A stretch of DNA of 64,000 bases from Alphaproteobacteria bacterium (GTDB lineage: Bacteria; Pseudomonadota; Alphaproteobacteria; Rs-D84), in contig JAIDWS010000004.1 of NCBI GenBank assembly GCA_029059055.1, forward strand, positions 18,593 to 82,592, written 5' to 3'. Position 1 is the stretch's first letter; the number at the start of each line of letters is the position of its first letter. Below are positions 15,001 through 18,000 of this stretch, one piece after another. Made by a program: the position numbers.

Positions 15001-18000
15001 GTCGGCGGTGTTCGATTTATTGTTGGAATTGGTGCGTAAAAACAAAATGGCCATGCTGTTTGTAACGCATGACATGAAATTGGCCGCGCGCGCCGACAGA
15101 ACAATCACCATCACAGACGGTGTCGTGCATTAATGAATATATATAGCAAAAAAGGGGGAGAGAGTCATGAAAAAAACAACAAAAACATCCGCAAAAGCAT
15201 CCGCTGTTGCATCCGCCAAATCGGCACCGCGCGTTGCGTGTTGCAGTACCCGGCAGAAAGTCTGGGGCATTATCGCATTGGCGGGATTGTTCACATGCGG
15301 ATTAATGATTGGGTTGGCAATTAATCGTCCCACTGTCAATGCGGCGCCCAATTATGCGGGTGATGCGGTGGCGGCACCGGCCGCGCCGAATGCCGATTTA
15401 AAACCGACATGCACCGTTATCGAAGAATTAATTTTCAGCAGAATCGTATCAGAAAATGACGACCGCCCATGGGTGCATCTGACGAATGCGGACAATTATG
15501 CAATTTTGGCAGAACGGGGCTGTCCGGAAAACGCGGAACATTACAAGAATATGGCCCTGCGTGAAATTGAAATCGCCAGCGCATTGCAGAGTGACCATGA
15601 TATGGCGGACGAAACCCAGACCGAATTTGTCATCGACACGTATAAAAAATTAAACATGCAACGCGAAGCGCGCGAATTCCTGGACAAGGTGCAAAAATTG
15701 ACCAATCCGGCCATTGATTTTATCTTGCAAATGGAACAGATTATCAACGAATAATCGGGATAGATAAACCGGGGGGACCATATGCACAAAGGAATAATTT
15801 TTTGTCTGATGATATTGTTGCCGGTTGCGTGCAATGCCGCAAACGTTGCCGAACGGGTTAAATGTGACGATGTCAAGGCACAGATTGATGCCATGGCATC
15901 GGATGAAAACGCGGATGCGGCACAGTTGGCAGAACTGCGCAATACGTATCGTAAAAATTGTGTGCGCAGTGCCGCCGGGCGTGCATCACGCACCATCGCG
16001 GTCAGTCGTGCGCCGGTTGCATCATCGGCCGATACGGGCGCCGGGCAATCGTGCGAACCGGATGAATATGGATGTTGCCCGGGCGAAGTATACACCGACA
16101 TGGGGGACGCTGGATTTAATTGTTGCCCCGCGTCCGGTGATGGCATGTGTTTTCAACCGATAAAGACGGCATCCCAACCCGCATCGACCGCCACGCCGGC
16201 ACCAACGGTTGGCGCGGTCTGTGACACACCGGATGAAAATGGATGCTGTCCGGATGAAATACTGATGGATATGGGTGAACAGGGGATGAATTGCTGTCCG
16301 AAAACGGGCGGTGATTGTTTCCCACCGATTAAATGATAATACCGGCAAATGCCGGTATTTTTTATTCTTGTTATACGACCAGAATAAAATTTGTTCGGTT
16401 GCGCATCTGAAAAAGATTCAGGGGGTCATCCGAAACCGAACAAAATACAGCCGCCAAAATTTCCATGGGGAAAAAGGCGGCCGGGGTGTTAGTAATATCA
16501 TCTAGAACAGTGATTTTGTTGGCCTTCCGGTTGCCCGTATTTTATAAACCAACAGCACCCCGACAATGCGGGACAATAACGGTGCGACGCGCCGCTTATT
16601 CTAACGATTACGATGCATTCGCACCGGTTCTAGATAAAGGCTTACTAATGCCCCTGAATCCACATCCCTGTGGATTCATTCCTAATGCTATCATGGTAAA
16701 AGCGAAATAACAATAAAAAACAACCAATGCAACAAACGCATCAACGCCGGCAAATAAATGTGTGGCGATTGCGTGTAAATGTGATATAATTATCCACGAC
16801 AGCGGGCGTTCCGCTGTTGGGCTTGATAACCCACATCAGGTGTCCGATTAATCGGGCAAAACCCAACACAAATAATCGGTTGGGGTGTCGTGAATATGTT
16901 GAATAAACGACGCAACGCCTGATGTTGTTATCAAACCCCAACCGCCTGATTACTGGTGGTTTTTTTGTTGGGGGAAAATAAAATGAAATGGTTTGTGTTT
17001 TATATAATGTTTCTGGTAACGCCGGCAATGGCCGATGTCGCCACGGTGGATTATGTCGCACGCCAGGATGCGGCGGTGGTTCACAAAACCGGGGATGAAA
17101 CCATCAGCGGTAAAAAAACGTTTACGGATATTCCCATGATTCCAACCGCGACTTTACCCGGTATGTAGGTGGTAACAGATGATATCCGTATTTCTGGTTT
17201 TGATGTTGGTGGCGACATCGGCGTGGGCCGATGTTTATCCGGCGGCAACTGCGGGATATGTTCGTGATACGTTTGCTGGGCATTTATGCGGGCTGTTCAA
17301 TACCGTGCCAGATGCCACGGCGGTCAATATGGAATATCTGTTGTCGGTGGTGGATATGTGTAATTCAGGGTTGGATGCTTTCGGTAATCTAATCTCTATA
17401 ACCAGTTATGGTACGTCACCCTATGCGACGAAGCATATGGCCAATACCCAGGCGGTTACCTGGGCGATGAATATGGTTTATGATTCTTTGTATAGTGTCG
17501 TCTTGCTATTGGATCCCAATTGGGCAGGATTTTGGACTTTTGATGGGCAAGAATTTCTGCCCGATGGTATATATTTTGCCCCGGGCTTTGGGTTGGCTAG
17601 GTCATCTTTATGGATGGATCAGAACGGGGGGGATGTAACGGTTGAGGTTCGATTTGCACTGTTGGATTCCACATCGGTATTCAGTTACGGGTTATCCCCT
17701 GATGCCAGATGTAATTTTAATGTCCATATTAATGATTATGCCCGGGTGGATGAAAATACCGTTGCCCGTGTTATTGAAACGGGTATGGCTGGGCAGCATT
17801 TGCTGTTCAAATATTCGCCAGATACGCAGTCGCACACGATAACCACGGTTTACAGCGGTGACGGGCGGGATCATCAGTTGTTTTTTGATGGGGAAGAGTT
17901 ATCGCCCGACATGACGATATGGGATGATGATTTATTTTTGGATGATAACTGGGCGCCGGGCATGCCTGTTTGTAATGCCTTTGGTCTGGGCAATTTTGCC

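Follow-up and report, generated by a model that had tools for sequence, protein, structure and literature searches.

The minus-strand segment from position 16441 to 16677 of a 64,000-nucleotide (nt) stretch of alphaproteobacterial DNA (GenBank assembly GCA_029059055.1, contig JAIDWS010000004.1; the whole stretch is referred to as the window) encodes a real, strongly structured RNA, here named copy B. It belongs to a family with four members in the window, of which copies A and B represent type 1 and elements C and D type 2. We think it moderately probable that this family is a cis-acting transcription attenuator built from a phage antisense module of the type represented by the small RNA (sRNA) sRNA-Xcc1 and by c4. 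All positions refer to the window, and transcription, promoters and terminators are predicted from sequence throughout. A first-pass annotation of this DNA had proposed that a minus-strand RNA, structured and a paralogue of copy A, is under selection for its structure; this is borne out by covariation across the family, by a covariance-model match confined to the minus strand and by conserved G-U pairs.

The covariance model R1 matches the copy B locus on the minus strand only (155.9 bits, E 4.5e-38), and nhmmer detects it with E 1.1e-44. Since many conserved G-U pairs would read A-C on the opposite strand, the strand is fixed as minus. The RNA consists of a structured body of approximately 195 nt followed by a terminator, and has a minimum free energy (MFE) of -99.3 kcal/mol with z = -6.7 (none of 200 dinucleotide shuffles was as good). 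In the first of two folds considered here (fold I), it begins with the 5' hairpin P0 (GAAUCCACA-GGGA-UGUGGAUUC, 16656-16677, helix 1 of the family alignment). The 5' strands of a stalk follow at 16627-16654 (P1, GGGG, 16651-16654; P2, UUAGUAA, 16642-16648; P3, UUAUCUAGAAC, 16627-16637), and the corresponding 3' strands lie at 16483-16512 (P3, 16498-16508; P2, 16489-16495; P1, CCCC, 16483-16486). Three hairpins meet in the junction that the stalk closes. P4 is a long hairpin starting with CGGUGCGA (16580-16626, helices 5 and 6), and P5 (CCCG/CGGG, 16559-16572, helix 7) pairs a segment called region 1 with region 2. P6, with the sequence UGUUGGUUU-AUAAAAUA-CGG GCAA CCG-GA-AGGCCAACA (16517-16554, helices 8 and 9), has invariant columns, is the best-conserved part of the RNA and aligns to the Rfam family RF02221 (sRNA-Xcc1) as the counterpart of Xcc1 hairpin 1. 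Region 2 (GUCGGGGUG, 16556-16564) is the 3' strand of P5 in fold I and the 5' strand of an Xcc1-type closing stem in the alternative fold II. Region 3 (CACCCCGGC, 16480-16488) is the partner of P1 in fold I or of region 2 in fold II, and overlaps the 5' arm of a terminator-like hairpin (GGCCGCC...GGCGGCU followed by GUAUUUUG, 16441-16482), which was recognized by folding and is atypical.

Upstream of this RNA, a putative -35 hexamer, TTGTTA (16708-16713, minus strand), and the extended -10 motif TGATAGCAT (16685-16693, minus strand) can be read from the sequence. The latter has the form TG-A-TAGCAT, with TAGCAT at 16685-16690; it follows the -35 hexamer after a 17-nt spacer and ends 7 nt before G16677. 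TTGTTA matches TTGACA at four of six positions, and TTGAnn is found at equal distance in other members. The -10 box of copy B aligns in position with the TATAAT boxes of 30 homologues, and from its sequence and position it would act as an extended -10.

Copies A and B share the plan of P0, stalk P1-P3, a junction of hairpins P4-P6 and terminator. Copy A (18854-19090, plus strand) is matched by R1 with 192.6 bits and has an MFE of -82.8 kcal/mol (z = -3.6; again none of 200 dinucleotide shuffles was as good). It is preceded by TGCTATAAT at 18838-18846. Its R1 match ends at 19099, a few nt before a Shine-Dalgarno (SD) sequence, GGGGG, and an ATG, so placed that copy A is the leader of the open reading frame (ORF) 19103-19690. 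P0 of copy A reads GAACCUGUG-GGGA-CACCGGUUC. P3 is UUAUCUAGAAC/GUUCUAGAUGA in B versus GGUACAUU/AAUGUAC in A, and P2 is UUAGUAA/UUACUAA in B versus UCGUAAG/UUUACGA in A. The inner stem, UGUUGGUUU/AGGCCAACA in B, has the 3' side GACCAA in A. In the covariance-model alignment of the two copies, 42 pairs are identical, 5 show compatible one-sided changes and 12 differ on both sides with pairing preserved, with 3 non-canonical pairs in each copy. When the 3' partners were slid by one to three columns, the number of double-sided changes dropped to 0-1. The first-pass annotation had claimed compensatory changes between the copies, and this structure-aware comparison, which was the decisive check, came out in its favour. 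The details on which it had relied are likewise present in the sequence: the promoter of copy B with TTGTTA, a 17-nt spacer, TG-n-TAGCAT and 7 nt to +1, the P0 hairpins with a GGGA loop in both copies (at 16677-16656 in B), the differing but complementary P3 strands, the changed P2 and the inner stem with GGCCAA or GACCAA.

To place the two copies in a family, genomes were scanned (one per species) with a 20-nt core pattern. This resulted in 32 loci, 30 of which were confirmed by nhmmer and the covariance model; the loci L068 (Acutalibacteraceae) and L074 (Trichococcus) were rejected. The confirmed loci are in metagenome-assembled genomes (MAGs) labelled Alphaproteobacteria, proteobacterium, Rickettsiales or 'Candidatus Enterousia', from human, horse, sheep and goat gut and from rumen. 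The homologues are full-length, with at most two copies per 8-kb locus. When viral contigs were scanned with the core pattern of type 1, nhmmer confirmed none of the 58 loci obtained, and these are chance matches. So far all members come from uncultured gut Alphaproteobacteria ('Ca. Enterousia' and related MAGs); the window, too, is from a metagenome contig. At Rfam gathering thresholds only three transfer RNAs (tRNAs) were detected, and no family reached its threshold for copies A and B. With E up to 10, sRNA-Xcc1 was the only family consistently matched on both copies; STnc430, BSnc120 and others gave single, non-significant matches.

Fold I is strongly supported by a model alignment of 32 sequences with 71 pairs. 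Canonical pairs fill 96.0% of the pair cells, compared with 38-48% when the partners are slid, double-sided changes occur in 43 of the 71 pairs, and none of 500 shuffles reached any of the five measures used. Covariation is spread over the helices: P0 has double-sided changes in six of eight pairs (97% of cells paired), P2 has three pairs with 3-4 pair types, P4 has double-sided changes in 12 of 16 pairs, and P5 in 2 pairs (94% of cells paired). In P3 all eight pairs covary, with up to four pair types each, and its complementary runs have a mean length of 8.0 within a copy versus 3.9 between copies. The stalk arms are hypervariable, yet 99% paired. Individual members folded independently by MFE show the same architecture. 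G-U pairs are conserved as such (31 of 32 sequences at columns 52-263; 24 U-G and 8 U-A at columns 210-234), and no reading frame is kept across the members. Invariant unpaired nucleotides, for example UAUAMAAUAC and GAAAG, are located in the P4-P6 junction. A role as CsrA sponge, suggested by the GGGA loop of P0, was set aside, as most members have AGAGA there. One locus (L087, 145-900, minus strand) harbours a tandem duplication, about 515 bp apart, of the leader together with an ORF of 66 amino acids (aa). P3 is CUAAAGACA in one duplicate and CUAAACAGU in the other, and the 3' strands match each; as read from the sequences, this shows compensatory change between very recent copies.

The usual layout at these loci comprises a sigma-70 promoter, P0, the stalk P1-P3 closing three hairpins, an intrinsic terminator, an SD sequence and an ORF. 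A canonical TTGnnn-17-TATAAT is located 5-10 nt before P0 in most of the 34 copies listed, and upstream of P0 only these promoter hexamers are common between copies, the remaining sequence being unrelated. For 25 of the 36 copies listed, the next ORF has an SD sequence and opens 3-18 nt past the model end, so that there is no room for another promoter. The other 11 include four picks inside the model (script artefacts), one ORF at a distance of 118 nt and four loci with short downstream sequence. Among the 36, the copies lacking an ORF are copy B and a partial copy at locus L083. This arrangement suggests that the family normally is a 5' leader and not a stand-alone sRNA gene, copy B being the exception. 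The cargo ORFs are unrelated to each other and encode outer membrane protein (OMP)/porin-like beta-barrels, lipoproteins, a C5 DNA methylase, GIY-YIG and DUF805 proteins and many proteins without Pfam match. At three loci (L073, L075 and L063) the cargo proteins have the same lipoprotein signal and a glycine-rich linker (LAACGGGSGGG) and otherwise no Pfam match, and may represent a family of variable surface lipoproteins.

RNAalifold, applied to a MAFFT alignment, gave fold II for the 3' half of the RNA without being prompted. In this fold GGUCGGGG, which is the P5 3' strand, has CCCCGACC as its partner. The 3' strand of P3 sits in the loop of a hairpin AAUCA/UGAUU, and a local hairpin GGGCU/AGCCC forms over the 5' strands of P1 and P2. 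The helices of fold II are 96.3% paired versus 27-61% when slid, although the alignment was fitted to fold I. The alternative helix between regions 2 and 3 is paired in 95% of cells. Its pair 198-273 is AU in 14, GU in 12, GC in 4 and UA in 2 sequences and is unpaired in none; the two U-A cases are copy B and the L079 copy, and in copy B the fold I partner of this base is mismatched. The stem between regions 2 and 3 is complementary at nine of nine positions, with sequences that differ among B, C, D, the type 2 leaders at L215 and L216 and genuine Xcc1 loci. This comparison is informative for regions 2 and 3 only, since in copy A and the genuine Xcc1 loci the segments chosen automatically as region 1 were wrong. 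Fold II is less stable than fold I by 8.4 kcal/mol on average (3.5 in B, 5.0 in A). The alignments thus argue that two mutually exclusive folds are both conserved.

Fold II corresponds to the fold of sRNA-Xcc1 in Rfam. Copy B shows a sub-threshold match to RF02221 at 16472-16564 (minus strand), which covers the entire model (1-87 of 87) with 36.8 bits at a gathering threshold of 53 (E 4.9e-4 in a 3.5-kb search). The scores of copy A (35.2), element C (35.2) and the L215 copy (35.7) are likewise below this threshold, and three genuine Xcc1 loci (L092-L094) score 69-73 bits. The Xcc1-type helices are 95-99% paired in the family. The three genuine loci, one on a Desulfovibrio plasmid, one in N. 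gonorrhoeae and one on a Pseudomonas plasmid, are located upstream of BRO, KilA-N-like or unknown genes. The N. gonorrhoeae one (L093; NZ_CP119140.1, 542828-545896; 68.8 bits) lies on a 2.17-Mb 'plasmid' in PLSDB which evidently is the chromosome. There, Xcc1 is followed by a strong promoter-like TTGACA-17-TATAAT and then by an ORF of 295 aa, whose N-terminus resembles viral ORFs assigned to KilA-N by Pfam.

sRNA-Xcc1 is very common in phage contigs: a scan of viral contigs for its core gave at least 120 loci (L095-L214), of which 104 unique ones were analysed. Among the 104 unique loci listed, the hairpin 2 loop and the junction find better partners in the flanks of their own locus than in those of other loci, both upstream (p 3e-22) and downstream (p 3e-8), and among the matches listed the upstream and downstream flanks have words of 8-10 nt in common. 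In 67% of the 87 loci listed, the best downstream site ends between -10 and +25 nt of the ORF start. Seven of ten randomly picked downstream proteins are of the antirepressor type (KilA-N, Bro-N, pRha or P22_AR_N). We suggest that in phages sRNA-Xcc1 behaves like P1 c4, that is, as an antisense RNA to the ribosome binding site (RBS) of antirepressor genes. The criterion of complementarity to the RBS was derived here from the viral loci and is outside the Rfam definition. No paper that links Xcc1 to c4 or describes phage Xcc1 in this way was found in the literature. In our family the upstream complementarity is kept (own -15.3 versus cross -5.6 kcal/mol, p 1.5e-20). A downstream RBS target was not detected, neither by duplex energy (own -9.9 versus cross -9.6 kcal/mol, p 0.38) nor by complementary runs and shared words (word length 5.7 own versus 5.4 cross).

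The type 2 relatives show how far this architecture can diverge. Element C (48363-48605, plus strand) is the leader of the ORF 48626-49285, which encodes a signal-peptide protein without Pfam match. It is matched by R1 over 48358-48614 with 29 bits (E 6e-6; z -8.4) and has P0, stalk, terminator, SD and ORF as in type 1, but its core differs and its P4-like hairpin is much longer. Element D (16798-16968, plus strand), detected with C as nhmmer query (E 1.8e-6), lies back to back with copy B and is the leader of the ORFs 16983-17168, which has an SD sequence before it, and 17179-18171. The type 2 profile matches D with E 3.2e-42, a value reached by construction, D being among the five sequences from which this profile was built. 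D has an MFE of -75.8 kcal/mol (z -7.1) and shares the plan of P0, stalk, three hairpins and terminator; its stalk is formed by UUGAUAAC/GUUAUCAA and ACAUCAGG/CCUGAUGU, its terminator was called at 16940-16961, and its extended -10 promoter is TGTGATATAAT. With D in this place, the 106-aa ORF 16741-17061 (minus strand) is spurious. The region around copy B had been described as an otherwise unexplained gap of 650 bp: a structured RNA, copy B, is indeed there, but the same gap also holds the divergently transcribed element D.

A scan of metagenomes added three further type 2 relatives with the same plan. In type 2 (C, D, L215 and L216) the stalk, the toggle between regions 2 and 3 and the terminator are kept, and much of the core is replaced. 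The toggle has co-varied, with GGUUGGAGG/CCUCCAACC and GGUUGGGG/CCCCAACC in type 2 versus GUCGGGGUG/CACCCCGGC in copy B. The MAFFT alignment of five type 2 sequences was structurally inconsistent. A weak Rfam match to c4-a1b1 is located on the 5' part of D with its a1/b1-like strands (16786-16837, plus strand; 19.7 bits, E 0.096); it is non-significant, but suggestive in that it is in line with the c4-like logic of Xcc1. At L215, a human-gut contig, a match to isrJ lies just 5' of the type 2 leader (4056-4124, plus strand; 32.6 bits at a threshold of 37), and is probably a false positive driven by a terminator.

How the two folds could control transcription can be outlined as follows. Segments 1 (CCCUGAC), 2 (GGUCGGGG), 3 (CCCCGACCGC) and 4 (GCGGUC) constitute a scheme of the classical attenuator kind, 1:2 / 2:3 / 3:4. 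In fold I, the variable 5' segments and the 3' segments would form the stalk P1-P2-P3 that closes the P4, P5 and P6 junction; GACCGC would be free for the terminator and transcription would stop. Region 3 (CCCCGACC) and the terminator arm GACCGC have GACC in common, and therefore fold II removes the base of the terminator. In fold II, the pairing GGUCGGGG:CCCCGACC would thus take up the terminator base beside the U tract and allow read-through into the gene. A protein, a small ligand or an RNA could act as the trigger by recognizing the conserved P4-P6 core or the free 5' strands. This model predicts more termination when region 2 is changed from GGUCGGGG to GGUCCCCG, which breaks the 2:3 pairing, and less termination when P3 is broken.

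Several observations weigh against the attenuator. Fold I is favoured thermodynamically, in some members by up to 21 kcal/mol, and in some members 6 bp of the terminator are still possible in fold II, so that termination could be simply constitutive and partial. The covariation specific for fold II is modest: four pairs have double-sided changes, a count which was reached by 42 of 500 shuffles. A Pfam search with 20 downstream ORFs revealed no common theme and suggests no ligand or regulon. Finally, an intact copy B with nothing to regulate would be explained no less well if the RNA as such had a function. The signals of copy B are also a weak point in its description as an RNA gene: the promoter, with only 8 of 12 consensus matches plus the TG of the extended -10, escaped the promoter scan, and the terminator, whose 20-nt loop contains an inner hairpin and whose U tract is interrupted, escaped the terminator scan. 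In this copy the structure is complete, the promoter weak and the terminator atypical, and an ORF is missing; its product is most likely the terminated RNA alone, either as an orphan leader after loss of the cargo or as a free sRNA.

The latter possibility can be generalized to the whole family. The RNA itself could be the product, a trans-acting antisense sRNA similar to Xcc1 and c4, in which the 3' strands of P3 and P2, freed in the Xcc1 fold, pair with targets. The targets would possibly be the matching 5' strands in nascent RNA from that very locus; only leaky read-through would allow expression of the downstream genes, and copy B would be a normal, complete gene. The full structure of copy B in the absence of an ORF speaks for this explanation, as does the fact that P2 and P3 change nearly everywhere between paralogues while P4-P6 are near constant, which is the pattern of a specificity determinant. 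Moreover, the genuine phage Xcc1 is complementary to the RBS of the next gene. However, the RBS regions downstream of our family contain no second target (p 0.38), the antisense segments are sequestered intramolecularly in the favoured fold, and the short distance from terminator to SD, seen in 25 of the 36 copies listed, argues for a leader. We consider an antisense sRNA unlikely. Less likely still is a classical riboswitch, in which the P4-P6 junction would bind a small molecule or second messenger as an aptamer, with stalk and terminator serving as expression platform. A large, conserved multi-helix junction with invariant unpaired nucleotides, closed by a variable stalk, would suit such a function, and so would the overlap between the terminator and an alternative helix. 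Diverse and often unannotated downstream genes, as found here, were also seen when cyclic di-GMP riboswitches were first recognized. On the other hand, much of the core is swapped in type 2 (C, D, L215 and L216), which is unexpected for a single ligand, the downstream genes are metabolically incoherent, and the element descends from an antisense RNA module.

Two further explanations do without switching by the RNA. The stalk, with its approximately 20 bp and internal loops, could be a site of the RNase III type or a 5' stabilizer, and the whole a processing element or a decaying repeat similar to Correia elements or miniature inverted-repeat transposable elements (MITEs). The 5'-terminal hairpin is of the kind which protects mRNAs, and many copies per genome (four in 64 kb) would be in line with a repeat. 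But the arms of MITEs are conserved in sequence and decay by mutation, and here they are hypervariable and 99% paired; the upstream flanks have only promoter hexamers in common, the terminator between stalk and ORF would be unaccounted for, and the Xcc1-type alternative fold is conserved. We regard this explanation as very improbable. A DNA-level element, such as a recombination or attC-like site, or a gene for a small protein (for example the ORF 16465-16710, plus strand) has hardly any probability left. In its favour are the integron cassette from which sRNA-Xcc1 was originally described (bioRxiv 10.1101/2025.06.18.660453) and the long stop-free stretches in some members. Yet the abundant G-U pairs would be A-C on the other strand and the model matches one strand, the copies are dispersed in both orientations without forming arrays, and the open frame varies in strand and phase and is often interrupted. 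Together, these sequence properties essentially exclude both the DNA-level and the coding reading.

In the window, copy B is surrounded by genes for LolC/LolD-like ABC transporters, tRNAs and unknown proteins, and the small ORFs adjoining it have no Pfam match. A count of Neisseria and Pasteurellaceae uptake sequences, made as a hint to the host, gave practically nothing, with a single match to the Apl-type USS. Downstream of copy B, no SD-preceded ORF of at least 40 aa was found within 175 nt. The non-coding spacer at 16360-16440, where other members have the SD and ORF, has as its sole content the hairpin UUGUUCGGUU/AACCGAACAA. It is followed by a bidirectional terminator found by the terminator scan (16338-16359), which is common to copy B and the convergent gene 15782-16336. 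This terminator is perfect (AATACCGGCAAATGCCGGTATT, with T tracts on either side) and would halt read-through from copy B, too. The genes for tRNA-Gly(UCC) and tRNA-Tyr(GUA) (18277-18444, plus strand) are located between the operon led by D and copy A, and the approximately 400 nt from tRNA-Tyr to the copy A promoter (18445-18840) contain only the ORF 18489-18845, without Pfam match.

The description of this family is of interest for several reasons. It is a large, well-supported class of structured RNAs, new to Rfam 15, from a lineage known by metagenomes alone. The four units in the 64-kb window suggest that many unrelated genes are placed behind one type of RNA switch. If the attenuator model is true, an antisense module was rebuilt into a terminator-based switch, and the family is a candidate orphan regulator with a testable mechanism. 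It is tempting to go further and to speculate that an Xcc1/c4 immunity module of phages was domesticated in a gut lineage with reduced genomes, acquired an overlapping intrinsic terminator and was amplified into a general, self-contained switch ahead of many unrelated surface and accessory genes, in which each copy has a private, hypervariable P2/P3 code; by this code the terminated RNA of a locus could address only nascent transcripts of its own locus, resulting in locus-specific RNA feedback. However, this scenario we regard as doubtful.

The nearest known system is sRNA-Xcc1. In the literature it is treated as a trans-acting sRNA, first found in an integron cassette (bioRxiv 10.1101/2025.06.18.660453), and it was noted 5' of symE in Xanthomonas integron cassettes and 5' of ORF6N in APSE phages, while Xylella has tandem copies. 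Copies A and B, C and L215 share with it a closing stem that encloses hairpin 1, which has the AUACAAUAC / GAA internal loop, and hairpin 2, and both elements stand upstream of a gene in the same orientation. In the genuine Xcc1 loci of the Desulfovibrio plasmid, N. gonorrhoeae and the Pseudomonas plasmid, the hairpin 2 loop and the junction after it are the partners of upstream segments, resulting in the same extended stalk. Thus, sRNA-Xcc1, filed as trans-acting and linked to virulence, here looks like the 3' part of a longer c4-like leader, and the Rfam model seems to cover only this part. In contrast to sRNA-Xcc1, our family has a strong intrinsic terminator overlapping the closing stem, additional P4 and P5 hairpins and no RBS target site. 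It is chromosomal and present in dispersed multiple copies, its cargo genes are unrelated and not of the antirepressor or symE type, and copy B has no mobile-element context.

The c4 RNA of phage P1 is encoded in the c4-icd-ant operon, which it represses (PMC8198154). Like c4 (P1/P7 immI; RF01695, and c4-a1b1, RF03163), our family is a leader-encoded RNA with a closing stem, two hairpins and exposed segments complementary to upstream a1/b1 sites, to which the 5' strands of P2 and P3 correspond here. The a1/b1-a2/b2 layout of P1 c4 was reportedly worked out by Citron and Schuster in 1990. RF01695 itself gave no match at E up to 10 in the region 16000-19500. Differences from c4 are that downstream a2/b2 sites are absent, that no icd or ant genes follow, and that control would use an intrinsic terminator instead of a translational block with polarity. 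Terminator/antiterminator leaders, among them riboswitches and attenuators that depend on a protein or an RNA, are located between promoter and ORF; so are 25 of the 36 copies listed, along with A, C and D, but copy B, with no ORF within 175 nt, is not. With such leaders the family shares a terminator 5' arm that is also used by a conserved alternative helix and the 1:2/2:3/3:4 scheme. It differs from them by the lack of a coherent regulon, by a switch derived from an antisense module, by the presence of two core types on one platform and by at least one copy, B, that controls nothing. On these sequence and structure comparisons, the family, although not a member of either by Rfam criteria, is a distant, re-engineered relative of sRNA-Xcc1 and c4.

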